This document shows positions 9,259 through 39,602 of a DNA stretch of 64,000 nucleotides, in pieces. The notes under the pieces were generated by a model, which was not told the DNA's origin, did not search any database, and saw only the letters and a list, made by a program, of their open reading frames with translations. Position numbers and translations under genes: made by a program. How positions within the stretch are numbered: the stretch's first letter is position 1; each line of letters begins with the position of its first letter. The stretch comes from Oscillospiraceae bacterium (lineage in GTDB: Bacteria; Bacillota; Clostridia; Oscillospirales; Ruminococcaceae), in NCBI GenBank assembly GCA_017532085.1, contig JAFXJT010000010.1, forward strand, positions 7,057 to 71,056. Direction: 5' to 3'.

Positions 9259-11937
9259 ATGCGTGGTTTATCCTCAGAAGAGGCTGCTCGCAGACAACAA
9301 CAGGAGGGTGCCAATACGCTTGCCGAACCGCCTCGTTCGCATCCCATCCGCATTCTGCTGGCGCAGTTTCAAGATCTTATGGTACTGATTCTCATGGGTG
9401 CTGCCGGTATTTCTGCCTTTCTGGGAGAATATACCGATGCCGCTACCATCGGTATCATTGTAGTGCTCAATGCCATTCTTGGTTTTATTCAGGAATATCG
9501 CACCGAACAGACGCTCCTTGCTCTGCGGAATATGACCGCACCGACAGCAAAGGTCTATCGTGATGACAGCCCCGTCATTCTGCCTGCTGCCCAGCTGGTC
9601 ACTGAGGATCTGATTCTGCTGGAAGCCGGCGATCGTGTGCCTGCGGATGCTTGTATCCTTTCCTGCAGCAATTTGCAGGCAGAGGAATCCATTCTCACGG
9701 GAGAATCCTGCGCTGTGGAAAAATCCGCACACACCGAACAGGATGGCGCTGTCTCCAATGCCATCGGCAGGACAGATGTGCTCTATGCCGGTACCTCCGT
9801 CACCAGAGGCAGCGCCGAAGCCAAAATCATCGCCATCGGCAAACAAACGCAGATGGGACAAATCTCACAGCTGCTCTCGGAAATCGACAGCGGTCAGACC
9901 CCTTTGCAAAAACGATTGGATGAGCTTGGAAAAGTCGTTACCTTGCTGTGCGGAATTGTCTGCGTTATGGTCTTTCTGGCAGGTGTGCTCCGTGGTGAGC
10001 CGATTCCCGATATGCTTATGACCGGAATCACCATCGCCATTGCTGCCATCCCAGAAGGACTGCCTGCAACCGTTACCATTGCGCTGGCACTGGCTGTCCG
10101 CAGAATGCTCAAGCGCAATGCGCTGGTGAATCGACTGCATGCTGTGGAAACCTTAGGCTGTGCTTCCGTCATCTGCACCGATAAAACCGGTACCATTACC
10201 GAAAACAAAATGACTGTCTGTGCCTTAACTGCCGGTATGGAAGAATTGGCTCTCAGCGGAAACGGCTGGCAGAAATCCGGTACGCTGACCGATGCCCATG
10301 GCGCTGCCTGTAATCCTCACACAAAACCCGATCTGGCTGCGCTGCTGCGCTGTGCCGTATTATGCAATCATGCAAAGCTCAAGGGTACCCTGCAAAATAC
10401 CGCAAGACAGCGCGGCTCTCTGCAAGCCAAGGGCGAATGGGATACCGTCGGAGATCCCACCGAAATCGCATTGCTGGTTGCTGCCGCAAAATGCGGCTTT
10501 ACTGCCGATGGATTCTCTCGTTATCCTCTGGTGCATGAGCTGCCTTTTGAAAGCGAAACCCGTTCTATGACCGTATTTTGTGCGCAGCCCATGCAGGAGA
10601 TGCTCCTTGCCTGCCGCAAAGGTGCGGTGGATGCGATTCTGCCTCAATGCAGCTTCTATCGGGAACAGGGAAAAACGCTGCCTCTGACACCGCAGAAACG
10701 TGCCGCCATTCTGGCACAGGCTGAGGCGTATGCCGAACAGGCACTGCGGGTCCTCGCTTTTGCGGAAAAGGATTGCAAGGATCCCAATGCGCCGCTGCAA
10801 AGCATGGTCTTTCTCGGTCTGATGGCAATGATGGATCCTCCGAGAGCACAGGCGAAGGCTGCTGTTGCCGATTGCGTCCGTGCCGGCATTAAGGTGATGA
10901 TGCTGACAGGCGATCACGCAAAAACAGCGGCGGCTGTGGCAAAGCAAGCCGGCATCCCCAATGGACACAATGTACTGACCGGTGCCGAGCTGGATGCAAT
11001 GAGCGATACACAGCTCGCCGATTGCGTTGCGCAATACGGTGTCTTTGCCAGAGTCACGCCCTCCCATAAGCTGCGGCTGGTCAAAGTACTGCGCTCCAAA
11101 GGCAAAATCGTGACCATGACCGGCGACGGCGTGAATGATGCGCCTGCCGTGAAAGAGGCGGATATCGGTGTGGCAATGGGCAAAAACGGCACCGATGTAA
11201 CCCGTCAAGCTGCCGATGTGATCTTGCTGGATGATCGCTTCGATACCCTGGCTGCCGCCGTGGAGCAGGGCCGCACCGTATATGCCAATATCCGGAAATT
11301 TGTGCGCTATCTGCTTGCCTGCAATATCGGAGAAGTATTAACCATGTTTCTGGGGCTTGTCATGGGAATGCCCATGGTATTGCTGCCCACACAGATCCTG
11401 CTGGTCAATCTGATGACCGATGGTCTGCCCGCCATTGCTCTGGGTCTGGAACCGCCCTCGAAAGATATCATGCGAAAGCCGCCGAGAAATGCTTCTGAAA
11501 GCTTCTTTGCCCACGGACTGCTCTCCAAAATCATTTTCCGGGGCATCTTCATTGCTCTTTCCACACTGGGTGCCTTTACGACCATACTGCGTCTGACCGG
11601 TTCTGTGGAAACGGCACGCACAGGTGCTTTGGTGACATTGATCCTTTCTCAGCTCCTGCACGTATTTGAATGTAAAAAAGAAAATGGTACGCTGTTTACT
11701 GTGCCGTATTTTTCCAATGGAAAGCTGCTTTTGGCTGTGCTGGTCTCATTGGCTGTCACCGCTTCTGCGCTTTGGTGTGAACCGATCCGGCTGCTGTTCG
11801 GAACAACCGCTTTATATGGAAAGCCTCTGCTTTGTGCTGTGCTGTTCAGCTTTGCGGTGCCGCTGGCTTCGACGCTTCCGGTATTGCTTGGTGGATGGCA
11901 CCGCCATGACGCGGTCTCGGAATCAGTCCAAAGCTGA
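9259..11937 (+). CDS. calcium-translocating P-type ATPase (type IIA, YloB-like)
   Basis: Motifs seen: [43 protein letters not shown] and NIGEV. SD GAAGGGAG precedes ATG 9259. Confidence 0.93.
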
Positions 11938-12265
11938 TCTCCAAAGCATAGTCCACCTGTTTCATCGCTTCCTGCGGAATCTCACCCATGCGCTCCTTGA
12001 GCCGCTGTTTATCAATCGTGCGGATTTGCTCCAACAGAATAATACTGTCTTTGGAAAGACCACAGCTGGAGGCTGTCAACGAAATATGCGTTGGCAGCTT
12101 CGCTTTTTCTCTCTGGCTGGTGATGGCTGCTGCTATGACCGTGGGACTGTATCGGTTGCCAACATCATTTTGTATGATCAGAACCGGTCGGATGCCGCCT
12201 TGCTCTGATCCCACAACAGGACTTAAATCTGCATAATAAATCTCGCCTCTGCGGACTGTGAGCAT
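11846..12265 (-). CDS. mazF: type II toxin mRNA interferase MazF/EndoA, with no adjacent antitoxin gene
   Basis: [58 protein letters not shown]...[16 protein letters not shown] is almost colinear with B. subtilis EndoA. SD AAAGGAGTG precedes ATG 12265. The 3' end overlaps the ATPase gene by 92 nt. Confidence 0.9.
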
Positions 12266-12476
12266 TTGTCTCACTCCTTTCGTTCTCTTTGATAGCTTGC
12301 CCCTTTTTCAACGCTTTAGTCGTCCGAAACAGCCTCAATCCTGTTCTTTTATCTTATGTCGCATTGCGCCGAAATGTGACGAGGCTTGTCAGTGGATGTC
12401 GGCATATTCGCCAAACCAATGCCGTATTATTTGTTCTTGATTGTGCATTGATACGAATTGCAAAAAAACTTTTTCG

Positions 12477-12520
12477 AAACTTGCACGCAAACGTACAAGT
12501 TTTTGACGAAAAATCGCTGT
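12477..12520 (+). promoter_or_regulatory. operator/promoter element, site A: AAACTTGCACGCAAACGTACAAGTTTTT - N10 - CGCTGT
   Basis: A 10-4-10 inverted repeat AACTTGCACG-caaa-CGTACAAGTT sits 102 nt upstream of the terS ATG. A 27/28-identical copy with the same CGCTGT spacing lies upstream of the holin gene (site B). Confidence 0.6.
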
Positions 12521-12606
12521 ATGTGAACGCAGGTTACGCCCTCAAATATCCATCTGCGTTTTCATCCAATGCCCTCTCAAATCAAAAAGAAAGGTGGTTG
12601 ATACAG

Positions 12607-13146
12607 ATGAAGGAATCTACAGCCAATGCAGCTACAAAGCGACGCTTTTGCCGCTACTATCTGCTGCTTGCCAATGCTGCCGAGGCTGCCATCCGTGCAG
12701 GTGTGCCTCCTGATGAAGCTGAGGCGGAAGCGCTGGCGATTTTACAGTCGCCCTGCTATCGCAGTTATCTTTCCGAGCTTGCCGCACAGCCCCCTCTGCC
12801 CATGCAGACTATGGTGCTTGCCGGATTGACAAGACTCGCCTTCGGTTCTGCCAATGATGCAGCAAGACTCGTGTTCCATGATGATGAGCAGCTTTCGCCC
12901 GAAGCGCTGCGTTCTCTGGATCTGTTTCATGTCTCGGAACTGAAACGGGATAAAGGCGGCGGTGTGGAAATCAAACTGTTTGATCGGCAAAAAGCAATGG
13001 AAAAATTGCTGGAGTTCTCTCACACGGCGGATTCCTCCGCTGCCGCTTCGGCGCTGCTGGCTGCCTTGCGTACACCACAGGAGGTGAACGCTGATGACAG
13101 CATCGGACAAGATGCATCAGACCATGATGCAGCCCTTCTCCCCTAA
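12607..13146 (+). CDS. phage terminase small subunit
   Basis: The N-terminus ATKRRFCRYYLLLANAAEAAIRAGVPPDEAE is TerS HTH-like (compare FcqeYl..gNat.AairAGys). KLFDRQKAMEKLLEF is also present. SD AAAGGTGG is upstream, and the 3' end overlaps terL. Confidence 0.75.
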   Translation: MKESTANAATKRRFCRYYLLLANAAEAAIRAGVPPDEAEAEALAILQSPCYRSYLSELAAQPPLPMQTMVLAGLTRLAFGSANDAARLVFHDDEQLSPEALRSLDLFHVSELKRDKGGGVEIKLFDRQKAMEKLLEFSHTADSSAAASALLAALRTPQEVNADDSIGQDASDHDAALLP

Positions 13147-14377
13147 GCAGCAGACGGTTCTGCGATGGTGGCTTGATCCGGAAACAGCACAGTATGATGC
13201 GATTCTCTGTGACGGCGCCATCCGTTCCGGAAAAACAACCGCACTGGCTCTGGGCTTTGTCATCTGGAGTTCTGCCGTCTTTCATCAGCAGAGCTTTGCT
13301 TTGTGCGGCAAAACCATTACCTCTCTGCGCCGCAATCTGATTGCACCGTTGATCGGACAACTGAAGCTTTTGGGGTTTACCGTCACGGAACGGGTCAGCC
13401 GTTCCTATTTGGATATCAGTTTTCAAGGTCACTGCAATCGGTATTATTGCTTCGGCGGCAAGGATGAGGCTTCCGCTTCCCTCATTCAAGGCATTACCCT
13501 CGCCGGCGTTCTGATGGATGAGGTGGCTCTGATGCCCCGATCCTTTGTGGAGCAGGCATTGGCTCGCTGCTCTGTACCCGGCTCAAGGATCTGGTTTTCC
13601 TGCAATCCGGAGCGCCCTTCCCATTGGTTCTATCAGGAATGGGTGCTGCAATGCAAACAGAAAAATGTGCTCTATCTTCATTTCACCATGCAGGATAATG
13701 CTTCACTGACACCTGCAATCCGCAGACGCTATGAACGAATGTACAGCGGTGCTTTCTATGAACGCTATATCAACGGAAGCTGGGTTGCCGCACAGGGGCT
13801 GGTGTATCCTATGTTCTCACAAGCACGCCATGTGGGCACGCCGCCCGAACCCTGCAGCCGCTATGTCATCTCCTGTGATTACGGCACCATGAACCCCTGT
13901 TCCTTTGGATTGTGGGGCTTTTGCAGGGATCGCTGGTATCGACTTGCGGAAAGCTACTATAATGCCAGAGAAACCGGTCTGCCGCGTACCGATGAGGAAC
14001 ACTATCAGACCTTGTGCCGGCTGGCAGAGCACTATCCCATTGAACAGATCGTCATTGATCCTTCGGCGGCAAGCCTGATTGCCTGTATCCGCCGCCACGG
14101 CAGATTCTGCGTGATCCCCGCACAAAACGATGTGCGCAGCGGCATTCAGCGTGTGGCAGATGCCCTGCGTGAGGACAAGCTGTGCTTTGCACCCTCCTGC
14201 AAGGATACCCTCAGAGAATTCTCTCTCTATGCTTGGGATGAACACGCTGCCAAGGATGCTCCCGTGAAGGAAAATGATCACGCAATGGATGACATCCGCT
14301 ATTTCGTCAGCACGGTATTGTGCCAATCGGATAAGCCCGCTTTCTTTGCGGCTTCGCTTGCAAGAGCACAAGGGTAA
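13094..14377 (+). CDS. phage terminase large subunit (PBSX-type)
   Basis: Walker A CDGAIRSGKTT, Walker B GVLMDEV, and nuclease-domain motifs SCDYG and NDHAMDDIRY. SD GGAGGTGA lies 6 nt before ATG 13094. Confidence 0.9.
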   Translation: MTASDKMHQTMMQPFSPKQQTVLRWWLDPETAQYDAILCDGAIRSGKTTALALGFVIWSSAVFHQQSFALCGKTITSLRRNLIAPLIGQLKLLGFTVTERVSRSYLDISFQGHCNRYYCFGGKDEASASLIQGITLAGVLMDEVALMPRSFVEQALARCSVPGSRIWFSCNPERPSHWFYQEWVLQCKQKNVLYLHFTMQDNASLTPAIRRRYERMYSGAFYERYINGSWVAAQGLVYPMFSQARHVGTPPEPCSRYVISCDYGTMNPCSFGLWGFCRDRWYRLAESYYNARETGLPRTDEEHYQTLCRLAEHYPIEQIVIDPSAASLIACIRRHGRFCVIPAQNDVRSGIQRVADALREDKLCFAPSCKDTLREFSLYAWDEHAAKDAPVKENDHAMDDIRYFVSTVLCQSDKPAFFAASLARAQG

Positions 14378-14423
14378 TCTGCTGAAATTTCCCCGTACTG
14401 TTATCAGAAAGGAGGTTTTTTCT

Positions 14424-15641
14424 CTGGGATTTTTTTCGTTTTCCAAGCTGCGGCGCAGCAAAAGTAATGGGCTTGCCTCCTCCTCGGTAATCTCCACCAC
14501 GGCAATCCGAGGCAGAGCTGCCGATTCGCTGCTGCCTGCCACGCACTTTGCGGCACCGGCTGCCGCAGAATGGCAGCTTTATGAAGGTCTGCGCTATGCT
14601 GTTCCTGTCATTGATGCTGCATTTCGTAAGATTGTAAGGCTCAGCGGCGGCTTTCATTTTACGGTTGACAATGATGCCGCACAATCGTTTTTGGATCAAT
14701 TCTGCGAAACCGTACCGGTTAATGCATCGAGCTGCTCCATGCAGAGCTTTGCCGATCAGATGCTGGACTGCCTGCTGCTCTATGGCAATGCTGTGGGTGA
14801 AATGCTCCTTGCCGATGAGGATGGATCGCTCAGCGGTCTGCGCATCCTCCATCCGGCCGCGGTTATCATGGAACAGACTGCACCCAATCAATGTCGCTTT
14901 TCCATGCGCACATCCGACAGCGATAAGCCCATTCCTGTCCGCCGACCCGAACAGCTTCTCTTTACGGCGCTGAATCCTCCGGCAGGCGGTCTGTATGGTG
15001 TATCGGTTCTGCGCGGCATCCCTGCTCTCAGCCGTATTTTGCTGCGCATTTACGAATGCATCGGGCAGAATTACGATCGGGCAGGCAATGTGCGCTATGC
15101 CGTGACGTATCATCCCGATGGTGATCCCGCCTCGCTTGCCTTCGCCAAAGATCACGCCGAGGAAATCGCTGCTGCATGGCAGGATGGCATCCGTGCCGCA
15201 CAACACGGCGAAATCCGAGATTTCATCTCTGTGGGCAATGTGGAAATCCATGCCATCGGTGCGGATCACACCATGCCGAACACCGAAATCCCCGTAAGAC
15301 AGCTGCTGGAACAGATTGTCTCTAAGCTTTCCATCCCACCGTTCCTGCTGGGATTTTCTTGGTCTACCACAGAACGAATGTCCTCTCAGCAAGCCGATAT
15401 TCTTACCTCGGAGCTGGAATATTTCCGCAGACTCCTCACGCCTTTGCTGCTGAAAATCGCAGAAGCAGCACTGCGCAGTCAGGGCTTTGCCGAACATCCC
15501 GTCATCTGCTGGGATCACATCAATCTGCAGGACGAAACCGAACTTGCGGAAGCAAGACTCAAAAATGCACAGGCGCATGAAATCGAACTGCGCAATCAAA
15601 TCACCGAAACCGAAATGAGAAAGGATTGTTCAAATGTATAA
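14424..15641 (+). CDS. phage portal protein (start uncertain: CTG 14424 or ATG 14274)
   Basis: About 405 aa directly after terL. The portal-like N-terminus (M/L)GFFSFSKLRRSKSNG follows SD AAAGGAGG by 8 nt, but the codon there is CTG. The only in-frame ATGs (14274 and 14289) overlap terL by about 90-104 nt and lack an SD. Confidence 0.75.
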   Translation: MGFFSFSKLRRSKSNGLASSSVISTTAIRGRAADSLLPATHFAAPAAAEWQLYEGLRYAVPVIDAAFRKIVRLSGGFHFTVDNDAAQSFLDQFCETVPVNASSCSMQSFADQMLDCLLLYGNAVGEMLLADEDGSLSGLRILHPAAVIMEQTAPNQCRFSMRTSDSDKPIPVRRPEQLLFTALNPPAGGLYGVSVLRGIPALSRILLRIYECIGQNYDRAGNVRYAVTYHPDGDPASLAFAKDHAEEIAAAWQDGIRAAQHGEIRDFISVGNVEIHAIGADHTMPNTEIPVRQLLEQIVSKLSIPPFLLGFSWSTTERMSSQQADILTSELEYFRRLLTPLLLKIAEAALRSQGFAEHPVICWDHINLQDETELAEARLKNAQAHEIELRNQITETEMRKDCSNV

Positions 15642-16602
15642 TTCCGTAAAACTGGAAAAGGGTATGTATCACCTCGCCAACACCTCCTTCCTGCAGGCTT
15701 TGGAGCAGGCAGATCCCTCCGAGCAGTATGCAGGTACGCCGCTGGGCACTCTGGATGCCTTTGAGCGTCAGCTCAAGCGTTTTGATATCCATATCAGCGG
15801 TCCCGAGTGCGACTGCGTCGAAAAGTTCTTTACCACCACCGAAAGCGCTGTTCTGTTCCCTGAATTTGTACGCCGTGCCGTGAAACAGGGCATGGAGGAG
15901 TCCATTCTCTCGGAGCTGACTGCTGCAACCACGGCTGTCAACGGCACCTCTTACAAGGGCTTTGCGATTGATGAAACCGATGGTGCTTACTCCGCCACCG
16001 CTGCCGAAGGCACCGATATGAAGGTAACTGCCATCACAGAAGCGTCCTCTGCTGTGGCACTGGCCAAATATGGCAGAGTGATTTCCGCTTCCTATGAAAT
16101 CGTGCGCAGACAGCGTCTTGACAGCTTTGCCGTCGCATTGCGTGCCATCGGCAGAAAACTTGCCGGAGCCATCGTCGCAACGGCGCTGACCCAGCTCAAA
16201 GACTCTGTTACGGCAATCTCTTTGTCCGGCAGCGATCTTTCCTATGCGGATCTTGCCAATCTCTATGGTCAGTTCACCGACTATAACATGACAACTCTGG
16301 TGGCTTCTCCCAAGAATGTGGCGCTGATCTTAGCCATGGAGCAGATGTCCGATCGCTGTGCCGATGAAAATGGTCATGTCTATCTGCCCTTTGGTGCAAA
16401 GCTGCTCAAGGATGCTTCTTTGGAGGATACCGTTATGATCGGTCTGTGCAAGGATTATGCGCTGGAATGCATTACCGGCTCTGAGCTGCTGCTGGAAACC
16501 GATCAGCTCATCAATTGTCAGCTCGATCGCATTGCCGTTTCTGTCCGCATCGGCTTCCTGCCATTGATGGATGGCGCTACCGCTGTCTTAGAATGGAGCT
16601 GA
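15634..16602 (+). CDS. putative HK97-fold major capsid protein (no delta domain)
   Basis: 322 aa. VALAKYGRVISASYEIVRRQRLDSFAVALRAIGRKLAGAI resembles the conserved MCP core. The position in the head module fits, and the start overlaps the portal stop by 8 nt. Confidence 0.65.
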   Translation: MYNSVKLEKGMYHLANTSFLQALEQADPSEQYAGTPLGTLDAFERQLKRFDIHISGPECDCVEKFFTTTESAVLFPEFVRRAVKQGMEESILSELTAATTAVNGTSYKGFAIDETDGAYSATAAEGTDMKVTAITEASSAVALAKYGRVISASYEIVRRQRLDSFAVALRAIGRKLAGAIVATALTQLKDSVTAISLSGSDLSYADLANLYGQFTDYNMTTLVASPKNVALILAMEQMSDRCADENGHVYLPFGAKLLKDASLEDTVMIGLCKDYALECITGSELLLETDQLINCQLDRIAVSVRIGFLPLMDGATAVLEWS

Positions 16603-16637: not shown

Positions 16638-17543
16638 ATGGGACATATGACCGATGAGGCATTGCTGGAAAAACTCAATGCCTTCACCAGACGTGCACAT
16701 TCGCTGGATGAGGTCTATCTCTTTGATCTCATCCTCTGCGATAACGAGATCGACCGTGACGGCGACTGCTTTTCCAAAGAAGCGCTGCTTTCTCTGCAGG
16801 AACGCTTCGTGGGCGTAACGGGAATCTTTGATCACAATCCTCGCTGCGGCAATCAGAATGCACGCATCTTCCATACCGAGCTGATGGAGGACAATACCAG
16901 AAAAACTGCATATGGTCAGCCCTATCTCTATCTGAAAGCCAATGCCTATATGATTCGCACAGAAAGCAATCAGGATCTCATCCGCGAAATCGAAGGCGGC
17001 ATCAAAAAAGAGGTCAGCATTTCCTGTGCTGCCTCTCAACAGATCTGCTCGATCTGCGGTGCCAACCGTCTGCAGAAAAACTGCGGCCATATCAAAGGAA
17101 GATCGTATGGCGGTGCACTGTGCTATCGGGTGCTGGATGGTATCACCGATGCCTATGAATGGAGCTTCGTTGCGGTGCCTGCTCAGAAAAATGCAGGTGT
17201 CACCAAAACAATGGGCGGCAAGCTTCTCGATGCGGAACGGCAGCAGCTTTATGATGCCTTGGAACAGGCCAATGCTTCTCTGGATGTGCTCACCGAAGCT
17301 CTGCGAAGGGAGGTTGTAAAGCTCTGCTATAAAGAGGGTGACAGCATCTGCGCCAGAATGCTTGCCGAAAGCACCATACATATGGATGCCGATGCTCTGC
17401 TCTCTCTGAAGAAATCGCTGGAGCTTTTAAAGCCTGCGGCACAGCCTCCCATTGATCACAAAGCTTCGTCCCATGCCGATCCTGCATCCAAAGGGATCCG
17501 TGCCTTCTCCATGCAGGGAAAGCGAGGCGAGGCGCACCGATGA
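16638..17543 (+). CDS. putative prohead protease / scaffold (S78 / XkdF-like)
   Basis: NEIDRDGDCFSKEALLSLQERFVGVTGIFDHNP...KKEVSISCAA resembles the prohead protease core. The C-terminal third is Ala/Leu/Glu-rich and helical (scaffold-like). SD GAAAGGAG is upstream. Confidence 0.6.
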   Translation: MGHMTDEALLEKLNAFTRRAHSLDEVYLFDLILCDNEIDRDGDCFSKEALLSLQERFVGVTGIFDHNPRCGNQNARIFHTELMEDNTRKTAYGQPYLYLKANAYMIRTESNQDLIREIEGGIKKEVSISCAASQQICSICGANRLQKNCGHIKGRSYGGALCYRVLDGITDAYEWSFVAVPAQKNAGVTKTMGGKLLDAERQQLYDALEQANASLDVLTEALRREVVKLCYKEGDSICARMLAESTIHMDADALLSLKKSLELLKPAAQPPIDHKASSHADPASKGIRAFSMQGKRGEAHR

Positions 17544-17896
17544 ATGTGGAACAATGTGCCAAGCTCTTTGCTTTGTTCGCTGCGCTTGAGGATATTACCC
17601 CCTATCAGCCTTTGCTGGATGCTGCTGTCATAGAATGCAGACAGCAGCTGAAAGAGGGCGCTGATGAATCCGATATCCGTTTGTGCTATTACTGTGCTGC
17701 CATTGCCAATCTGCGCTATACCCAGATGATCGCTGCACGCAGTACGCTTTCCCATACATATGCCGGTACCCTTGCAAAATCCCATGATGAAACCATCCCC
17801 CATCGCTTTGCAGAACGTCTGTGGCAGGAATACCGAGCGCTGGCAAAGGATCTGCTCCGGAATGAGGATGTTCTCTTTTCTGCGATGGTCGGCTGA
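17540..17896 (+). CDS. putative head-tail adaptor/connector protein
   Basis: A 118-aa helical protein immediately after the head genes. Its start overlaps the upstream stop as ATGA. The function is inferred from size and position only. Confidence 0.45.
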   Translation: MNVEQCAKLFALFAALEDITPYQPLLDAAVIECRQQLKEGADESDIRLCYYCAAIANLRYTQMIAARSTLSHTYAGTLAKSHDETIPHRFAERLWQEYRALAKDLLRNEDVLFSAMVG

Positions 17897-17913: not shown

Positions 17914-18354
17914 ATGGCATATCTCTCTACACTCACCAGTTCCATCATCCGTGCCATGCAGGATATCGGTATGCGCGCCGAACGGGAATATCACAATAAG
18001 CCTGTGGATCACTATGGCAGCACTACCTTCGCTACCGTTGCTCTGGAACGGCTGATCTATGGAAAACCCCTTCCCCATTCAGAGGGCACGGTCTTTCCTC
18101 TGACCGCTACCATTCGGGTCAGACTGTATTGTCCCACAGAGTATCATACCGGTTTGCTGGAAACACAATGCGATCTGTATCTGATTCCCGCATTGCTCAA
18201 TGCGCAGCTTGATCTGCGAAAAATCATTACCGAACCGCCCTTTTTCGATGCAAAAATCGGCATGCTCTGTATGCCGGTGCATATTACGGCGGATACCCTT
18301 GCAACCCGCACATGGATCGAAACCGATACAGAAACGGAGGCTGATCAGCCATGA
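17914..18354 (+). CDS. hypothetical phage-like protein (possible neck/stopper-terminator type)
   Basis: 146 aa. SD CAGGAGG is upstream, and the stop overlaps the next start as ATGA. The function is not recognised. Confidence 0.55.
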   Translation: MAYLSTLTSSIIRAMQDIGMRAEREYHNKPVDHYGSTTFATVALERLIYGKPLPHSEGTVFPLTATIRVRLYCPTEYHTGLLETQCDLYLIPALLNAQLDLRKIITEPPFFDAKIGMLCMPVHITADTLATRTWIETDTETEADQP

Positions 18355-18824
18355 GCTATTATCTCTATGATCTGGATACCTCGCCTACGGTACGCACGGT
18401 GATTCTGGACGATATGACACTCCTTGTGGAAGGCTTTTCTTTGGAAGAAGAACGTCCTTATGATCTGATGCTGCTCATGGATGGCAGCTATCATCAGGAG
18501 GCTATGAACAAAAAGCCTTGTCTGCTCACCTTAACCGGCAGAATTGCTCCGTCGGAGGAAATGGATCTTTTGGAATTCTTCCGCCGTGCCATCGGGCAAA
18601 AAACCGCATTTTCTTTTTCGTTCGGTGAAATGCTCTTTGCCGATATGCGGATCTGCCGGTATCGGCTGAAGGCAGAGGAGGGCGCTCGGATTGCAGCGTA
18701 TTCCTTGACGCTTGTGGGCAGCACCCATCAGCCCTATACCGACGACGAAGTGGAGATTCTGCCGTTTTCTGTACGGGATCCCGAACAGACGATGACAGAC
18801 GGAAAGGAAGGGCAGAGCATTTGA
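18351..18824 (+). CDS. hypothetical phage-like protein (possible distal-tail/Dit-like)
   Basis: 157 aa. SD GGAGG is upstream, and the gene is translationally coupled on both sides. The function is not recognised. Confidence 0.55.
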   Translation: MSYYLYDLDTSPTVRTVILDDMTLLVEGFSLEEERPYDLMLLMDGSYHQEAMNKKPCLLTLTGRIAPSEEMDLLEFFRRAIGQKTAFSFSFGEMLFADMRICRYRLKAEEGARIAAYSLTLVGSTHQPYTDDEVEILPFSVRDPEQTMTDGKEGQSI

Positions 18825-19771
18825 ACGCTATTTTGCAGCTCGATGTGATACAGACCTATGAAGTGATCGAAGTACAGTGTCTGCGCTTTACCCTCACACG
18901 GGATCACTATCTCCCCTATGCAGAGCTGAAGGCGGAATTCATCAGCGAGGCCTTCGGTCATGGTTTTCCCCGTCATGCAAAGTTCTATCTCGACGATATG
19001 CTGCTCTTTGAGGGTCTGGCGGATCATGTGAAGATCGTCAAGAAGAATGGCCGAAAGCTTGTTGCCATCTCAGCCAAAAGCTATTCCGCCGCTTTGCTGG
19101 ATAATCAGCCCACACCCGGTATTTATCCCAATGCAACGCTTTCTTCGCTGATGTCTCTATATCATCTCCCGTATATCACCTATCAGCAGAATGTGAATCA
19201 AAGCAATTACGTCTATGTGAAGGATAATACCTCCATGTGGGAAATGCTCATTCACTATACCTATAAGCTCAACGGCGGCTTCCCCTATATTGAAGGGAAC
19301 AATCATGTCAGGGTCACACGGCACAGTCAGCCCAGACTGTTTGAAATTCAGCCGGAAGAGATCATCAGCTGCGGCACACAGCATGATAACTCCCGTGTGA
19401 TCAGCCGTATCGAAATGGCAGATGCTGCAGGCAATTACGGTACCTTTTCCATGAACAATCCCTATGCAGAGGAACGCAATATCGTGCGTATCAAGCAGAT
19501 TGCACTGGATAAGCAGTATCTTTCCCATCCCGAATATGCGCTGACGCATCGCATCTATCGCAGTATGCAGAAGATTCGCACAACCTATGCAGAGTATCTC
19601 GGCTATAAGGGAGAGGATTTGCAGGATCATGTCTGTTTTATCGGATTCTCCACCGGTTATGCCGATCGCATCGAAATCCACGGAGAGCAAGGTCGGCTGT
19701 CTACAAAGGTGTATCATTATCATGATCCGTTCTGCAATTGCATTACTACACCGCCGGACAGCGATCGCTGA
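18821..19771 (+). CDS. hypothetical phage-like protein (weak resemblance to XkdQ / gpD-type tail hub)
   Basis: 316 aa. TTG start 18821 has SD GGAAAGGAAGGG 7 nt upstream and overlaps the previous stop. The pattern F.EG.ADHVKIVKKNGRKLVAISAKSYSAALLDN...NATLSSLM recalls hub/late-control-D-type proteins, but this is not verified. Confidence 0.5.
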   Translation: MNAILQLDVIQTYEVIEVQCLRFTLTRDHYLPYAELKAEFISEAFGHGFPRHAKFYLDDMLLFEGLADHVKIVKKNGRKLVAISAKSYSAALLDNQPTPGIYPNATLSSLMSLYHLPYITYQQNVNQSNYVYVKDNTSMWEMLIHYTYKLNGGFPYIEGNNHVRVTRHSQPRLFEIQPEEIISCGTQHDNSRVISRIEMADAAGNYGTFSMNNPYAEERNIVRIKQIALDKQYLSHPEYALTHRIYRSMQKIRTTYAEYLGYKGEDLQDHVCFIGFSTGYADRIEIHGEQGRLSTKVYHYHDPFCNCITTPPDSDR

Positions 19772-28518: not shown

Positions 28519-28564
28519 CAAAAATCCCCTCGGATTTCTGTGTTTGCAGCACAGATCCGAGAGG
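28519..28564 (-). terminator. intrinsic terminator ending the holin-lysin unit
   Basis: On the minus strand, CCTCTCGGATCTGTG...CACAGAAATCCGAGGGG is followed by ATTTTTGTTG. Confidence 0.65.
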
Positions 28565-28575
28565 ATTCTGAGGCT

Positions 28576-29442
28576 TTATGCCTGACTAAGAGATGCGCGG
28601 GTCTTGGGACCGCAGACGCCATCCACCTCCAACCCGCAATCGGTCTGATAGCAGCGTACTGCCCGTTCGGTATCGGGACCGAAGCTGCCATCAATACCCG
28701 CTGTTCCGCAAGAATAGCCCTTTTGTATCAGATGCCATTGCACCCAGCGGACATCATCGCCCTTGCTGCCACGGCGCTGCGGCTTTGTGGGCATCCCATA
28801 CGGACAGCCCTCCGGTGGATTGGCAGATACGGTTCCGAATCCGTTTTTCTGCTTTTTCCGCATTATGGCAGGATAGGCAAGATAGGCATAATTCAGATCC
28901 ACCTTGCCGGAAATCCCGTTGACACTGCCAGTATGGGAATATTGCCACATACCATAGGGATACCGATAGGAAGTCTTGCTGACACCGGTATGTGCCACCC
29001 AGACGGCATAGCGGCGCAGAATGCGTTCAGAGAGTTTCTGCTCCAGGAAATACTTATAGGAATAAATCCCTGCAAAATAGCCTGCTGCCTCCAACCTTTG
29101 ACAAAACGCCTCCACAATGGCATCCACCTGTTCTCTGCGCAGCATACGCTGTATCGTATCCTCAATATCAAAATAAATGGGATAGGCAAAGGTTTTGCCT
29201 TCCAGAAGCTGCAGCACTGCCTGTGCCTCTCTGTCGGCAGCCTGAGGCGTTGTGGCATAGCTGTAACAATAGGCACCCACCGGAATGCCTGCTGCGGATG
29301 CTCCTTGATAATTCTCACCGAAGCGCAGATCGGCACCGTTGCAATATACCCGCAGCACAGCAAATTCCACACCGCTTTCCGCCACCTGCTTCCAGTTGAT
29401 TCTGCCTTGATGCGCAGAAACATCAATTCCTTTGATCGCCAT
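28576..29442 (-). CDS. GH25 muramidase endolysin with C-terminal PG_binding_1 domain
   Basis: MAIKGIDVSAHQGRINWKQV...GAYCYSYA...YFDIED is a GH25 core. The C-terminus GDDVRWVQWHLIQKGY...IDGSFGPDTERAVRCYQ...VDGVCGPKT is peptidoglycan-binding. SD GGAAGGAG is upstream. Confidence 0.88.
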   Translation of the reverse strand: MAIKGIDVSAHQGRINWKQVAESGVEFAVLRVYCNGADLRFGENYQGASAAGIPVGAYCYSYATTPQAADREAQAVLQLLEGKTFAYPIYFDIEDTIQRMLRREQVDAIVEAFCQRLEAAGYFAGIYSYKYFLEQKLSERILRRYAVWVAHTGVSKTSYRYPYGMWQYSHTGSVNGISGKVDLNYAYLAYPAIMRKKQKNGFGTVSANPPEGCPYGMPTKPQRRGSKGDDVRWVQWHLIQKGYSCGTAGIDGSFGPDTERAVRCYQTDCGLEVDGVCGPKTRASLSQA

Positions 29443-29446
29443 GCTG

Positions 29447-29644
29447 TTACGCTCCTTCCTCACGATTCATGATCGCCGCAATACCGGCTGCCACGGCTGC
29501 CACACAGAATCCGATCACTGCCGATCGGGTACTGAAATCCGCAGCAGCAACATTGACCACCACATAGCCTGCGGCTGCCTGCAAAAATGTACGCAGTGTG
29601 CGCCGCATACATTCCGATTTGCAAAATGTTTTCAAGCTGTTCAT
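29447..29644 (-). CDS. phage holin (r1t-holin-like)
   Basis: 65 aa: MNSLKTFCKSECMRRTLRTFLQAAAGYVVVNV...VIGFCVAAVAAGIAAIMN. It lies immediately upstream of the endolysin, separated by 4 nt. SD AAAGGAGA is upstream. Confidence 0.7.
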   Translation of the reverse strand: MNSLKTFCKSECMRRTLRTFLQAAAGYVVVNVAAADFSTRSAVIGFCVAAVAAGIAAIMNREEGA

Positions 29645-29740
29645 TGCATTCTCCTTTGTCGCAATCGCTGTTTTATGCCGCAGCCCGCATCTGCCCTCCG
29701 AACCCATGGAAGCCGCAGCAATGCTCCATCGCCCTCATAC

Positions 29741-29786
29741 ACAGCGGAAAATGCGGAAAAACTTGTACGTTTCCGTGCAAGTTTTT
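29741..29786 (-). promoter_or_regulatory. operator/promoter element, site B: AAACTTGCACGGAAACGTACAAGTTTTT - N10 - CGCTGT (read on the minus strand)
   Basis: 27/28 identical to site A at 12477-12504. The CGCTGT box lies 10 nt downstream as at site A, and the holin ATG lies 112 nt downstream. The orientation relative to the operon matches site A. Confidence 0.6.
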
Positions 29787-29796
29787 GGATGGGATA

Positions 29797-29836
29797 CAAA
29801 AAAATCAGCGATGTGCACAATACACACCGCTGATTT
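29797..29836 (-). terminator. valS intrinsic terminator
   Basis: On the minus strand, AATCAGCG-(17 nt)-CGCTGATT is followed by TTTTTTT. Confidence 0.7.
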
Positions 29837-29857
29837 TCAGCAAATATTACAATTGTT

Positions 29858-32499: not shown

Positions 32500-32896
32500 T
32501 TTTCCGATCTTGTCATAAATGCGGTCAAATAAAAATCGCCCTGAACACAGAAAACACCATATGCTCTCTATGCTCAGGACGAACGGTTTCCATCAGGGCA
32601 ATGGGAATCACATCCGTGGTACCACCTGAATTCGGCAAAGCGTTTCAAACGCTCACAGCCGCACTCTTTGCTCGGACAGCGAGGCTGCAGCTGCACCCGA
32701 CTGACCTTCTCTGTAACGGGAGAACCCGTCAGACACTACACACAACCGATTGTGAAAGATCCTGACACAATCTGCTGCTTTGCATCCGCAGCTCGAAACG
32801 CGACTTCGGAGCAACCATCGAAGCATTTTCACCAACCATGCTCTCTCTGAACGACGGGGAACGCTCTTACTCCTCGTTTGTCATCGCTTTTCTATT
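32500..32896 (-). promoter_or_regulatory. T-box riboswitch leader, Val specifier (GUC)
   Basis: Read on the minus strand, Stem I carries the AGAGAG and GGUUGGUGAAA elements. The specifier loop reads CCGAAGUCGCG, with the codon at 32802-32804. The T-box core reads UUCAGGUGGUACCACGG (32614-32632). A terminator GCCCTGA...TCAGGGCGATTTTTATTT precedes the valS SD. Confidence 0.85.
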
Positions 32897-35525: not shown

Positions 35526-35799
35526 GCAACCCCCAAAAAACAATCAAGCCATACAAAAAACACAGCGTTCGGATACAGCAGTGCCATATCCTCTGATGAC
35601 TAGTATACTGAAAAATTATCTGCATTGCAATGAACAATCCTCTATTTTTTCTGCATAATAATCCGATGATGCCGGAATCACGGCAGGAAAGCATGAAAAA
35701 AACCATGAAAAATCCCGCTGCAATTTGTGCGAATTTACAAAAATTCGGGAAAGTGCGGAGGAAGCCTTGACAAGGAGAAGAAAACATGGTATTGTTATA

Positions 35800-35826
35800 T
35801 TAGCACTCAAAGATCAAGAGTGCTAG
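35800..35826 (+). promoter_or_regulatory. CIRCE operator (HrcA binding site) with upstream TTGACA promoter
   Basis: TTAGCACTC-aaagatcaa-GAGTGCTAG matches the consensus TTAGCACTC-N9-GAGTGCTAA. TTGACA lies at 35767-35772. Confidence 0.9.
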
Positions 35827-35887
35827 CACACGAAAAACCAGTCTGCCGATGCCGACTGATCTGCTGCGAAAGGAGTTGGATACTGCA

Positions 35888-36940
35888 ATGGATGACAGAA
35901 AGCTGAAAATTCTGGCAGCTGTTGTAGATGCCTATGTGACCACCGGTGAACCGGTAGGCTCCAAAGCCATTGCAGCGCTGCCGGATATCAATGTATCGCC
36001 GGCGACCATCCGCAACGATATGGCGGTACTGGAGCAACTGGGTCTGTTGGAGCAGCCGCACACTTCTGCCGGACGGGTACCGACCTTCCAAGGCTATAAG
36101 GTCTATATTGATAAATGTATGCACGCGCATACGATTCCCGAAGCAGATCGGGAACGGCTGGATCGGGTCTTTGAAGGCACCGAGGTGTTTGATGAGGAGC
36201 TGCTGATCCAATCGGCAACCACAGCATTGGCAGAGATTACGCATTGTGCCGCCGTGGCAGTGAATGCCATGCCGCAGTTTTCCGTGATCTCAAGAGTCGA
36301 GGTCATACCCACAGGAAAACGATTGTATGTGATTCTTCTGATCACCTCGGCAGGCAATATCAAAAACAAGGCATGCCGTCTGGAGTTTGATCTGAATGAG
36401 GAACAGCTCTCCTTCTTCACTGCATTTTTAACGGAGCATCTGCATGGCGTATCGCTTACGGATCTTTCACCGGAGCGTATGGAACAGCTGATTACCGCAC
36501 TGGGCACCTATATGGTAACGCTGGGTCCGCTGGTGCAGGGGCTTTATGAACTGAGCCGGGATATGATGCAGCAAGAGCTGACGGTCAACGGCACACGCAA
36601 TCTCCTCACCTGTCAAGAGCTGGATACAATGGATATTGTACAGTTTATGGAGCATCAGGATGTCATCATGCCGCTGCTCAACGATACCTTCAGCGGCATT
36701 CATGTGATGTTCAGTGAAGAAACCCATCAAACAGCATCGGGTTCTGCCGGACAGACCTTTGTCATCGGCAATTCCAGCATGATCGTGGGACAATATCACA
36801 AGGACGGCAGGGAAGCCGGCCGCCTCGGCATCATCGGCCCCATGCGGCTCGATTACGCCAGAGTCATTCCCTATCTTGAATATATCACCCAGAAGCTAAC
36901 GAATCTGATTTCCGAAAACAAGGAGGACGACGACATATGA
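35888..36940 (+). CDS. hrcA: heat-inducible transcription repressor HrcA
   Basis: MDDRKLKILAAVVDAYVTTGEPVGSKAI...ATIRNDMAVLEQLGLLEQPHTSAGRVPT. It is the first gene after CIRCE. Confidence 0.92.
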   Translation: MDDRKLKILAAVVDAYVTTGEPVGSKAIAALPDINVSPATIRNDMAVLEQLGLLEQPHTSAGRVPTFQGYKVYIDKCMHAHTIPEADRERLDRVFEGTEVFDEELLIQSATTALAEITHCAAVAVNAMPQFSVISRVEVIPTGKRLYVILLITSAGNIKNKACRLEFDLNEEQLSFFTAFLTEHLHGVSLTDLSPERMEQLITALGTYMVTLGPLVQGLYELSRDMMQQELTVNGTRNLLTCQELDTMDIVQFMEHQDVIMPLLNDTFSGIHVMFSEETHQTASGSAGQTFVIGNSSMIVGQYHKDGREAGRLGIIGPMRLDYARVIPYLEYITQKLTNLISENKEDDDI

Positions 36941-37527
36941 CCGAAGAACTGCGTGATACACCGGGCTGTGAAAATGACTGTGACGGCACCTGTGAGCCTA
37001 TGGATCCGATGCCGGAAGCGCCCAATGATTTCCTGGAAGAAGAACCGCCTTTCCTGGAAACCGATGACGGTGAGCCTGAGATCATTGAACTGACACCCGA
37101 ACAGCAGGCCTTGCAGGAAGCAAACGACAAATATATGCGTTTGTTTGCCGAGTTTGATAACTATCGCAAGCGTACTGCCAAGGAAAAAACCGAAAGCTAT
37201 CAGGATGCCGTAGCCAAAACGGTTCTGGAGCTGCTGCCGGTTGTGGATAATTTCGAGCGCGCCATGGCATCGCCTTGTGCCGATGAAGCCTTCCGCAGCG
37301 GTATGGAAAAGATCTATCAGCAGCTTTGTGAAACGCTGAAAAAGCTGGGCGTTACCGAAATCCCCGCAATGGGAGAAGTGTTTGATCCCAAAATGCATAA
37401 CGCCATTCGTCAGGTTGACGACGAAAACTATGACGAAAATATCATCTGCGAAGTATACCAGAAGGGCTATCTGCTGGGCAGCCGGATCATTCGTCACGCA
37501 ATGGTATCCGTTGCAAACTGCAGCTAA
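36937..37527 (+). CDS. grpE: nucleotide exchange factor GrpE
   Basis: FDNYRKRT and GEVFDPKMHNAI are present. The start overlaps the hrcA stop as ATGA. Confidence 0.92.
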   Translation: MTEELRDTPGCENDCDGTCEPMDPMPEAPNDFLEEEPPFLETDDGEPEIIELTPEQQALQEANDKYMRLFAEFDNYRKRTAKEKTESYQDAVAKTVLELLPVVDNFERAMASPCADEAFRSGMEKIYQQLCETLKKLGVTEIPAMGEVFDPKMHNAIRQVDDENYDENIICEVYQKGYLLGSRIIRHAMVSVANCS

Positions 37528-37584
37528 TCCGCCCTTTTCAACACATATCCGATTGATTATTAATTTTGAAGGAGGAACTTCATC

Positions 37585-39405
37585 ATGAGCAAAATTATTG
37601 GTATCGACCTTGGAACCACCAACTCCTGCGTTGCAGTTGTGGAAGGCGGCAACGCTGTTGTGATCCCCAACGCAGAAGGTGCAAGAACTACACCCTCTGT
37701 GGTAGCTGTTTCCAAAACCGGTGAGCGTCTGGTCGGCCAGATCGCAAAGCGTCAGGCAATCACCAACCCCGATAACACCGTGATCTCCATTAAGAGAAAA
37801 ATGGGCAGCAATGAAAAGGTTACCATCGACGGCAAGGCTTATACTCCCCAGGAGATCTCTGCAATGATCCTGCAGAAGCTTAAGGCAGATGCTGAGGCAT
37901 ATCTGGGCGAAACTGTCACCGAAGCTGTCATCACTGTTCCCGCATATTTCACCGACAGCCAGCGTCAGGCTACCAAGGATGCCGGTCAGATCGCCGGTCT
38001 GAATGTCAGACGTATCATCAACGAGCCGACCGCTGCTGCACTCTCCTACGGTATCGATAAGGAAGAGCAGCAGAAGATTATGGTATTCGACCTGGGCGGC
38101 GGTACCTTCGATGTCTCCATCATTGATATGGGTGACGGCGTTACCGAGGTTCTGGCAACTGCCGGCAACAACCGTCTGGGCGGCGATGACTTCGATCAGC
38201 GCATCATCGACTGGATGGTCGAGGAATTCAAGAAGGCAGAGGGCATTGATCTGCGCTCCGACAAAACAGCAATGCAGCGTCTGAAGGAGGCTGCCGAAAA
38301 AGCAAAGATCGAGCTGTCCTCTATGACAACCACCAATATCAATCAGCCGTTCATCAGCGTGGATGCAACCGGCCCGAAGCATCTGGATCTCAATCTGACA
38401 CAGGCAAAGTTCAATGAGATGACTGCAGATCTGGTTCGCGCAACCATGGGTCCTGTAGAGCAGGCTCTGCGTGACAGCGGTCTGAATCCTTCTCAGCTGG
38501 ATAAGGTACTGATGGTCGGTGGTTCTTCCAGAATCCCCGCTGTGCAGCAGGCTGTCAAGGAGCGTATCGGCAAGGAGCCCTTCAAGGGCATCAACCCCGA
38601 TGAATGTGTTGCACTGGGCGCAGCTTATCAAGGCGGCGTGCTGGGCGGCGATGTGAAGGAAGCATTGCTGCTGCTGGATGTGACTCCCCTTTCTCTTGGT
38701 CTGGAAACCATGGGCGGCATCTGCACCAAGATCATTGAGCGCAACACCACCAGCCCCCCCAGCAAGTCTCAGGTATTCTCTACCGCTGCCGACAATCAGC
38801 CTGCCGTAGATATCTGCGTGCTGCAGGGTGAGCGTGAATTTGCAAAGGATAACAAGCAGCTGGGTATGTTCCGTTTGGATGGCATTGCTCCCGCACCGCG
38901 CGGCATCCCTCAGATCGAGGTGACATTCGATATCGACGCAAACGGTATCGTGAATGTTTCCGCAAAGGATCTGGGCACCGGCAAGTCTCAGCAAATCTCC
39001 ATTACCGCATCTACCAACATGAGCAAGGAAGATATCGATCGTGCTGTGCGTGAGGCAGAACAGTTCGCTGAAGAGGATAAGAAGCGCAAGGATCAGGTGG
39101 ATACCAAGAACAACGGCGAAAGCCTCTGCTTCCAGTGCGAGAAAGCACTCAATGAGTTTGGTGATAAGGTCTCTGCTGAGGATAAGGCACCCATCGAGAC
39201 CGCAATCAACGAGCTGCGTGAGGCACTCAAGGGCGAGAATTATGATGATATGAAGGCAAAGACCGAGGCTCTCCAGAATGCATTCTACGCCCTCAGCTCC
39301 AAGGTGTATCAGCAGGCTGCACCCAATGGTACACCCGATATGGGCAATATGGGCAGCATGGGCGGCGATGACAATGTAGTCGATGCCGATTTTACTGAGG
39401 CGTAA
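37585..39405 (+). CDS. dnaK: molecular chaperone DnaK
   Basis: [28 protein letters not shown] and [14 protein letters not shown] are present. Confidence 0.97.
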
Positions 39406-39429
39406 ACGCCCGTCAATCAAAATTGTGCA

Positions 39430-39466
39430 AAAGGGGCGGATTCTGATCTGCCCCTTTGTGTTGTTT
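39430..39466 (+). terminator. intrinsic terminator after dnaK
   Basis: AAAGGGGC-(12 nt)-GCCCCTTT is followed by GTGTTGTTT. Confidence 0.65.
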
Positions 39467-39602
39467 GAATCGGATCAAACGGCAGGCGTCTGCCTTTGCA
39501 GACTGACCGGGCGATCCAATTGAAAGAGGATGCGCTGTATCAGGCAATTGCAGCGGCGGCGCAATCTTTCGGATGAAATCTCGAAAAAACCTGCAAAACC
39601 CC

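Follow-up and report, generated by a model that had tools for sequence, protein, structure and literature searches.

A rare promoter-like dyad precedes both a putative gene-transfer-agent-like gene block and a distant lysis cassette in an Oscillospiraceae chromosome

Why should two loci of a bacterial chromosome that lie 17 kb apart, with core genes between them, carry the same short palindrome in front of phage-type genes? The question is raised by a stretch of 64,000 nucleotides from an Oscillospiraceae bacterium (GenBank assembly GCA_017532085.1, contig JAFXJT010000010.1, positions 7,057 to 71,056 of the forward strand), which is called the window in this text. One copy of a 24-bp dyad (site A) stands before a block of nine genes, from the terminase small subunit gene terS to a gene named p316 here, and the other (site B) stands before a holin-endolysin pair. 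An earlier interpretation made from the letters alone, the sequence-only reading, had taken the two copies as direct evidence that a phage head cluster and a distant lysis cassette are co-regulated, possibly from late promoters. The answer we favour, with a probability of about 0.5, is that the dyad belongs to a promoter which depends on a dimeric regulator and would co-induce the genes of a gene transfer agent (GTA)-like particle together with the lysis genes; we infer the co-regulation from the comparison of sequences.

The dyad of site A reads AACTTGCACG-CAAA-CGTACAAGTT (12478..12501, + strand) and that of site B AACTTGCACG-GAAA-CGTACAAGTT (29760..29783, - strand), each 24 bp long. With their flanks they form the 28-mers AAACTTGCACGCAAACGTACAAGTTTTT at 12477-12504 (+) and AAACTTGCACGGAAACGTACAAGTTTTT at 29784-29757 (-), which are identical at 27 of 28 positions, the sole mismatch lying in the 4-nt centre. 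The likeness of the two regions is limited to the 28-mer and about 25 nt downstream, where the hexamer CGCTGT follows 10 nt past the 28-mer at both sites (12515-12520 for site A, 29746-29741 for site B). The distance from the T-run to the ATG is 102 nt at site A (terS ATG at 12607) and 112 nt at site B (holin ATG at 29644). On the two sites, their coordinates, identity and spacing, the sequence reads exactly as the sequence-only reading had claimed, and its statement that the window holds no third copy is borne out as well. There are exactly two copies of AACTTGCACG-N4-CGTACAAGTT; the 28-mer with up to 3 mismatches gives only sites A and B in 64 kb, against 0.00 expected from 100 shuffles, and the degenerate dyad with up to 3 mismatches again gives only these two, against 0.03 expected. 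The sequence of site B is identical in other samples of the same species.

The core of the dyad, TGTAC-N6-GTACA, which can also be written TGTA-N8-TACA, lies inside AACTTGTACG-N4-CGTACAAGTT and has a two-fold symmetric 5-N6-5 geometry with a variable centre. Both window copies share the same asymmetric change, with TTGCACG in the promoter-distal arm and CGTACAA in the proximal arm. The C of the distal arm is also found in locus L148; JAZOCU01, a sister species with 89% nucleotide identity, has T in all 3 exact sites, and CAG:403 has the change in both arms. A scan of the relevant strand for a sigma-70-type -35/-10 pair finds none at either site, in agreement with what had been said of sigma-A promoters. 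Rfam has no family at either site, its only match being the T-box before valS, and in the searchable literature the motif strings gave unrelated primer matches only, with no description of the motif.

When copies from other genomes are aligned, the dyad proves to be the upstream half of a cassette of about 50 bp, followed by a T-rich/CCCGAAAA spacer and then by a -10-like TATAGTGA. The shared layout is free of gaps: the dyad, T(T/C)(T/G)-CCCGAAAA(T/C), 5 nt, and TATAGTGA(A/G)AGG. The 5-nt segment varies, being CGCTG in some lineages and ACCCA or AGGGT in others, and the feature kept downstream across the relatives is a T-G-A at +23 to +25 after the dyad, within the -10-like TATAGTGA. CGCTGT, which had been proposed as a second box, is a lineage-specific spacer. 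In the window, the downstream half of site A (12502..12526, +) consists of the spacer TTTGACGAAAAAT, CGCTGT, a weak -10-like TATGTG and the conserved TGA (12524-12526), and that of site B (29735..29759, -) of the spacer TTTCCGCATTTTC, CGCTGT (29741-29746) and TGTGTATGA with the conserved TGA (29735-29737).

In 18 non-redundant cassettes the information content is 1.1-2.0 bits per position in the arms (values raised by the way the cassettes were gathered, as discussed below) and 0.2-0.8 bits in the central 4 nt, which occur in either orientation (CAAA or TTTG). Highly conserved arms around a free centre are the anatomy of a site for a dimeric protein, as the sequence-only reading had suggested. 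The register from the dyad to the -10-like TATAGTGA/TGA is fixed and gap-free in about 15 of the 18 cassettes, which come from different lineages and stand before unrelated genes. Where a relative has a clear -10 (TATAGT), 17 nt separate the dyad from TATAGT, which places the dyad centre at about -41.5 of the presumed start.

Two further features of these leaders were seen. In phage-type and CAG:254-type cassettes (L001-L009, L014, L024, L030, L045, L050) an extra TTGTAAA lies about 20 nt, or two helical turns, upstream of the TTGTA of the left arm and resembles a third half-site, with a TTGACA/TTGTCG block further upstream; the window sites have no clear equivalent. In the terS leader of the window (12526-12560, +) the inverted repeat AACGCAG...CTGCGTT encloses a loop of about 21 nt. 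The repeat is kept in JAZOCU01 though the loop diverges; it may be a leader structure, and the T-run after it is not conserved.

How common is the element? The pattern AACTTGYACGNNNNCGTRCAAGTT was scanned through three collections. It was found in 9 IMG/VR viral contigs, at 19 loci among 185,579 species genomes, with at most 3 in any one genome, and at 97 metagenome loci, mostly from redundant gut strains; the cassette had no match in 50,697 GenBank phage records. Genomes carry 1-3 exact copies of the motif, and each locus of 8-14 kb that was examined has one. A few matches in unrelated high-GC or environmental contigs consist of the palindrome alone and look like chance, and all others share the longer architecture. 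Conversely, a reverse scan with CCCGAAAA-N6-TATAGTGA recovered the palindrome, with one mismatch, upstream in every match from this clade. Because of the single copy per locus and the shared architecture, we regard the element as a rare promoter-type cassette and not as a dispersed repeat. A repetitive extragenic palindrome (REP)-like repeat with tens of copies per genome, the refuting case that had been named for the motif, was rejected, as there are 2 copies in 64 kb and at most 3 per genome among the species genomes. A multi-operator system like that of P1 C1 was rejected because every 8-14 kb locus, and likewise each 37-kb phage contig, has a single copy. A parS function, suggested by the position of the site behind parB in two phage types, was also rejected since most copies have no parAB nearby.

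The genes behind the cassette are diverse. It stands before the same terS-led cluster in Ruminococcus sp. CAG:254, CAG:403, MAG102, HGUT-00605 and JAZOCU01, and before an unrelated second lysis cassette, Amidase_3 plus holin, in another species (L012). It also precedes the replication or early-lytic modules of at least 7 different temperate phage or plasmid-like types, with genes such as D5 primase-helicase, AAA_24, DUF2800/DUF2815/DNA polymerase, DnaD-like, Xis plus primase, and YopX. In a further lineage of gut Clostridia it lies before gyrB-gyrA and downstream of recF (32 metagenome loci; also L013, L020 and L025), in the order recF-DUF370-[cassette]-gyrB-acyltransferase-gyrA and 74 nt upstream of gyrB. 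In JAZOCU01 it is found also before a GH30-dockerin enzyme and before a small open reading frame (ORF). The second cassette locus of CAG:254 leads to a 610-aa beta-helix protein. This protein (L024, L038, L056 and others), a right-handed beta-helix by a weak Pfam match, stands alone among host genes, and the cassette before it is identical to the one before terS of the same genome; it may belong to the same particle, as a spike or receptor-binding protein encoded at an unlinked locus. The motif is thus not private to the two window loci, and the label of a late promoter is too narrow. The regulon appears to be wider than head and lysis genes, and in the real phages the cassette does not have the place of a late promoter.

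What, then, are the two transcription units of the window? The block behind site A consists of nine genes on the + strand, for which the ratios of nonsynonymous to synonymous substitution rates (dN/dS) against JAZOCU01 are given here. It begins with terS (12607..13146; 179 aa; Terminase_2, Pfam 8.6e-15, and PHROG terS; dN/dS 0.09) and the large terminase gene terL (13094..14377; 427 aa; Terminase_6N, phrog_2 at 3.6e-51; 0.05). The portal protein gene (14274..15641; phrog_30703 at 1.6e-118; 0.11) has an uncertain start codon, so that the longest ORF is given, and it is followed by the gene of the major capsid protein of HK97 type (15634..16602; 322 aa; Phage_capsid_4, PF25209, or phrog_3922; 0.04). 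A conserved protein of about 300 aa (16638..17543; phrog_16951, function unannotated; 0.15) is present in all clusters; its position would suit a prohead protease or scaffold role. Then come three small conserved proteins of 118, 146 and 157 aa, all unannotated: p118 (17540..17896; 0.12), which has a mean column identity of 62% over 7 lineages and is a probable connector, p146 (17914..18354; 0.23) and p157 (18351..18824; 0.23). None of the three has a sequence match in Pfam, PHROG or PDB, and a single-sequence AlphaFold2 (AF2) model of p157 was uninformative, with a predicted local distance difference test (pLDDT) score of 33.

The product of the last gene, p316 (18821..19771; 316 aa; 0.17), was modelled with AlphaFold from 11 homologues (pLDDT 69, predicted template modelling score 0.70). 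In a Foldseek search of the PDB the model matched 3d37, 3cdd and 1wru best, with E of about 1e-15 and TM of 0.62-0.68; the matched proteins are Mu gp44, T4 gp27 and the prophage tail proteins 3d37 and 3cdd, and we assign p316 as a baseplate-hub or tail-tip protein with the T4 gp27 / Mu gp44 / Tal N-terminal fold. Because of this match, the block is not head-only but comprises capsid, neck and a hub-type tail tip. The nine genes include no tube, sheath or tape measure.

The surroundings of the block are those of a chromosome. On one side it is flanked by a P-type ATPase gene and by mazF, which is convergent to it, and on the other by genes for aquaporin (MIP), aldo-keto reductase (AKR) and GNAT; the rest of the window is core genome, with the dnaK operon, purL, eno, rplM/rpsI and others. 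Dockerin, CBM77 and dpaA genes suggest that the host is a cellulosome-bearing, spore-forming organism similar to Ruminococcus. The mazF/PemK toxin gene (11846-12262, -) is solitary, with no fitting antitoxin ORF of at least 20 aa upstream (12263-12476), and about 90 nt at its 3' end are shared with the convergent ATPase gene. The sequence-only reading had pointed to the position of site A in the mazF promoter region; this adjacency is peculiar to the window lineage.

Behind site B, on the - strand, lie a gene for a holin-like protein of 65 aa with two hydrophobic segments (29447..29644; weak PHROG holin match, 4.6e-4; dN/dS 0.16), which is called at the same 65 aa in public assemblies, and an endolysin gene with GH25 muramidase and PG_binding_1 domains (28576..29442; Pfam 7e-29 and 3e-17, PHROG endolysin; dN/dS 0.12). 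The pair sits between valS and GH3-M20-gltX, 17 kb from site A. Directly upstream of site B is the strong intrinsic terminator of valS (29795..29850, -; hairpin of -25.4 kcal/mol, z = -7, then a T-run), which marks the boundary of the lysis transcription unit. Only 5 homologues of the holin were found, and the distant ones lack the motif, so they offer no route to further lysis cassettes. Upstream of valS there is a T-box leader (32591-32893, -; Rfam RF00230, 99 bits), an ordinary tRNA-sensing control. At the other end, the endolysin stop and the GH3 gene are separated by 23 nt with no terminator (28553-28575, -), and the M20 peptidase and gltX genes follow on the same strand (to 22604); transcription from site B could read through into these core metabolic genes.

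We next consider whether the two units have been maintained. JAZOCU01 has the same order of ATPase, nine genes, host genes and lysin-holin pair. In the comparison with it, dN/dS is 0.04-0.23 for the nine cluster genes, 0.12 for the lysin and 0.16 for the holin, and the flanking host genes range from 0.045 to 0.17; the synonymous rate (dS) of the cluster genes, lysin and holin is 0.14-0.75, or 0.08-0.81 when flanking host genes are included. The dS values of mazF and terS are unusually low, 0.075 and 0.137, against 0.35-0.8 in neighbouring genes, which suggests recent recombination or extra constraint over 11.8-13.1 kb. Metagenome-assembled genomes of Ruminococcus and Oscillospiraceae encode more than 3500 homologues of the capsid protein, whose identity to it falls gradually from 96 to 53%, and five further species fetched by protein homology have the same nine-gene block amid different core genes. 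No integrase, repressor or replication genes lie in the cluster or adjoin it, in the window or in loci L147-L152. Because the same block stands amid core genes, with graded homologues and under purifying selection, it bears the signature of a domesticated element, as opposed to a decaying prophage or a mobile satellite.

The dyad has been maintained with it. Among six clusters found by protein homology alone, 5 carry the dyad 66-129 nt upstream of terS, with 0, 2, 2, 5 and 5 mismatches out of 20; the core TGTACG-N4-CGTACA is unbroken even where the capsids are 57% identical. In the sixth cluster the dyad is degenerate. The chance rate of such a dyad is about 4e-6 per position. It is present upstream of terS in L148, L149, L151 and L152, and altogether is kept there in about 10 lineages while the flanks diverge. 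In JAZOCU01, the orthologue of site A shows a conserved block over the dyad and the downstream half. At the holin promoter of this species the right half-site ACGTACAAGTT, the TGA at +23-25 and then GGGCG are kept, CGCTGT is conserved at 4 of 6 positions, and the rest of the leader has diverged. The proposed link between the capsid cluster and the lysis cassette holds, at least in part, in the sister species, but what is linked are not modules of a normal phage; they appear to be parts of a domesticated GTA-like element amid core genes. As for co-regulation, the sequence identity between the two promoters is good circumstantial evidence, and to call it direct evidence was an overstatement.

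Some database records touch on the history of the cluster. GenBank MT835508.1 (L140; 'Bacteriophage sp.') is a piece of chromosome with the ribosomal-protein/secY/rpoA region and a related capsid cluster, in which the protein of about 300 aa is encoded before the capsid gene and the dyad is absent, and the IMG/VR contigs L006-L008 are bacterial chromosome pieces as well; several records labelled viral are thus chromosomal pieces with this cluster. At most a few kb separate the capsid cluster from hrcA-grpE-dnaK in CAG:254-type genomes (L052, L079, L084) and in L150, and in the window the cluster and the dnaK region (35795-40761) are 16 kb apart. This hints at a shared chromosomal neighbourhood that is old but rearranged.

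The sites and their rarity, conservation, fixed register, gene content and purifying selection are what is observed, and the mechanism we favour is built on them. The 24-bp dyad would be the binding site of a homodimeric helix-turn-helix regulator and would form the upstream half of a promoter cassette of about 50 bp without a -35 element, at which a CRP/FNR-like or similar dimer would activate the housekeeping RNA polymerase. Activation is favoured because, in relatives with a clear -10, the dyad centre at about -41.5 is in the position of a class II activator. The cassette heads two units, the nine-gene block for packaging, capsid, neck and baseplate-hub tip and the holin-endolysin pair 17 kb away. 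Cells with the active regulator would first assemble particles filled with DNA and afterwards burst, in the manner of a gene transfer agent. Start sites, regulator identity, the sign of its effect and particle production are what we infer here from sequence. Other promoter types fit less well: readings of the cassette as an extracytoplasmic function (ECF)-, SigB-, sigma-54- or sporulation-sigma-type promoter, judged by eye against the consensus sequences, were rejected since the spacing or key bases misfit.

Several findings weigh against this mechanism. The -10-like hexamers are poor in the window lineage (TATGTG and TGTGTATGA), so that the -41.5 geometry is borrowed from relatives. Most cassettes were gathered by an exact-pattern scan, which makes the arms seem more conserved than they are, and the near-identity of whole cassettes among unrelated phages could come from recombination rather than constraint. 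The holin site of JAZOCU01 gives no match to the strict pattern; it could be read for the right half only, as the DNA ends inside the orthologue. There is no gene for a CRP-like regulator in the 64-kb window. The motif-bearing phage fragments, which are partial, have no regulator in common, only spurious ORFs overlapping the motif, an XRE repressor in 3 types and ParB in 3 types. Finally, because the cassette also precedes phage replication modules, gyrB-gyrA, the GH30 enzyme and a small ORF, its regulator would not be GTA-specific, and a joint induction of gyrase and lysis genes is not obviously coherent.

The choice of downstream genes would also fit a repressor. The dyad could be an operator over the -35 region for an XRE- or LexA-like protein that is inactivated by stress or DNA damage, in which case the loci would be derepressed and not activated. 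The gene sets behind the cassette (phage replication and antirepressor operons, gyrB-gyrA, lysis cassettes and the particle cluster) resemble damage-inducible sets, L030 has a Bro-N-like gene at +1047, and an overlap of the right arm with the region contacted by the polymerase would likewise lead to a fixed register. However, there is no recognisable -35 or extended -10 for unaided promoter activity, and the exact class II spacing is held even where the spacer sequence has diverged. The LexA (Cheo) box of Firmicutes has the consensus CGAAC-N4-GTTCG. The site reads GTACG-N4-CGTAC and, when it is read against this consensus, matches neither the full box nor its GAAC-N4-GTTC core, so a LexA site was rejected. 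We consider a repressor unlikely on this balance. Less likely again is a factor encoded by phages, with the chromosomal capsid and lysis loci being satellite- or defence-like and triggered when a temperate phage with this promoter type turns on its early/middle (replication) operon. In the real phage fragments the cassette is indeed a single-copy promoter of replication or early lytic modules and is not at terS, and the cassette versions of phages and chromosomal clusters co-vary: phage types A, B, D and G match the CAG:254 type, and phage type C resembles the MAG102 type. Nevertheless, the lack of a common regulator in the partial phage fragments tells against this possibility too, the presence of the cassette at gyrB-gyrA in at least 3 related host lineages argues for a host factor, and the cluster has no satellite-type mobility or replication genes. 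A phage satellite proper, such as a phage-inducible chromosomal island (PICI) or capsid-forming PICI, has an integrase, regulatory and pri-rep modules and an attachment site; it was rejected, as none of these genes adjoins the cluster in the window or in 6 other species.

The palindrome might also act without any protein reader, either as an RNA hairpin that terminates weakly or insulates in front of the promoter, or as a supercoil-sensitive DNA cruciform. With perfect arms it has a folding energy of -15 to -16 kcal/mol and runs into TTT(TT), the gene upstream of most copies points in the same direction, one lineage (L016) shows a symmetric change from T-A to C-G, and a cruciform sensor would suit gyrBA. 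In the window, the strong terminator that belongs to valS directly precedes site B, which is therefore not needed for termination, and at site A there is nothing to terminate, with the convergent mazF between the ATPase gene and the site. Moreover, both copies have a C·A mismatch in the sense strand, fold at -11 kcal/mol and are called by no terminator scan, so that an intrinsic terminator at sites A and B was rejected; there is no Rfam match, and the arm sequence itself, beyond its pairing, is conserved across lineages with proteins about 55% identical. We regard an element without a protein reader as highly improbable. The least credence is given to the cassettes being inert, either leftovers that came in with two prophage remnants independently or sites of pac type for TerS, and taking no part in co-regulation today. 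Local temperate phages commonly carry the cassette, which is seemingly mobile, with hybrid upstream/downstream combinations (L054, L060, L121), and the very few homologues of the holin are consistent with a recent acquisition. But in two species, at dS of about 0.5, the loci keep their synteny and purifying selection acts on both, the retention of the dyad upstream of terS among diverged flanks is hard to reconcile with leftovers, and a pac site would not precede phage primase genes or gyrB. We therefore retain activation by a dimeric regulator as the preferred explanation.

When compared with known systems, the closest parallel is FpGTA of Faecalibacterium prausnitzii, in which 125 kb lie between the capsid operon and a second operon for tail and lysis (Borodovich et al., Nat Commun 2026, PMC12946183). 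Its particles are 40-nm and apparently tailless, and the element is widespread in the genus; promoters are mentioned 0 times in that paper (PMC12946183). Both are chromosomal elements of gut Clostridia with an operon of about 10 genes including TerS, TerL, portal and capsid, a separate holin and endolysin operon, and no replication or lysogeny genes. The annotations, which are all that was compared, differ: FpGTA has a capsid of the N4-gp56 family and a Prp protease, and the window capsid is Phage_capsid_4/phrog_3922. The window also has a gp27-like hub inside the capsid operon, its second locus consists of holin and lysin only, and it is known from genes alone whereas particles were demonstrated for FpGTA. 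Set apart by these annotations, the two are analogous and not orthologous. The classical example of scattered loci with joint control is RcGTA of Rhodobacter capsulatus, whose structural cluster, unlinked holin/endolysin and accessory loci are switched on together by host or dedicated regulators, CtrA and GafA, in a subpopulation that then lyses. The window shares with it the structural cluster and unlinked lysis or accessory loci; RcGTA belongs to another phylum, with unrelated proteins and regulators, a full siphovirus-type tail and experimentally established co-regulation. Two features of a GTA-like element are found here: phage structural and packaging genes in a chromosome without integrase, repressor or replication genes (the window and L147-L152), and vertical inheritance with purifying selection across species. 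A third, an unlinked lysis locus co-regulated with the main cluster, would be provided by the cassette, which is the same at both window loci and is kept at least in part in JAZOCU01. No description of the nine-gene family was found in the searchable literature.

For the promoter, the nearest model is a class II site of the CRP/FNR family. NtcA sites, GTAN8TAC centred near -41.5, are a parallel (PMC3898017). The cassette has in common with them the TGTA-N8-TACA core and A/T-rich outer flanks and, judged by relatives with a clear -10, it would also share a centre about 41.5 bp upstream of the presumed start and a -10 with no -35. The differences are that the host is a Firmicute, where NtcA is absent, that the arms are longer (10 bp, AACTTGTACG), and that the start sites are predicted from sequence. 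In its distribution the cassette resembles the 'promoter-early stem-loop' (PeSL) of T4-type phages, a short unit of stem-loop and promoter which recurs at phage module boundaries. Both recur at module boundaries of otherwise unrelated phages, and hybrid flanks suggest recombinational exchange. Unlike PeSL, the unit described here is mostly found once per phage, its carriers are temperate phages of Clostridia, and it is also fixed at chromosomal genes (the GTA-like cluster, lysis cassettes and gyrBA).

GTA-type packaging has only recently been recognised as common in gut Ruminococcaceae and Oscillospiraceae, and was reported in Ruminococcus callidus and CAG-115, with the loci not identified there (PMC12946183). 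FpGTA is the only such gut element tied to genes so far, and the control of such elements is undescribed. The window adds a second, distinct and very widespread candidate, together with a cis-regulatory handle: its dispersed parts are joined by a 24-bp dyad within a promoter cassette of defined layout. The dyad opens a route to the regulator by DNA-affinity capture and to the regulon by genome-wide motif scans, and since the promoter type is common to chromosomal genes and temperate phages, regulatory cross-talk between host and phage becomes directly testable. The sources of the homologues are named only "Ruminococcus sp." or "Oscillospiraceae bacterium", which gives no link of the cluster family to Ruminococcus callidus. 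A wider view is possible, though on balance doubtful: the nine genes may be an undescribed minimal GTA family of a large Ruminococcus/Oscillospiraceae clade, whose dispersed parts, the lysis cassette and a receptor-binding-like beta-helix protein, would all answer to one promoter with the 24-bp dyad, which also serves resident temperate phages, as a replication switch, and the gyrBA of related Clostridia. A single regulator might then tie phage induction, the making of particles and altruistic lysis to a signal of replication or stress in the host. If this is true, the nine-gene family could account for the GTA-type packaging of short fragments that was reported from gut viromes for Ruminococcus.

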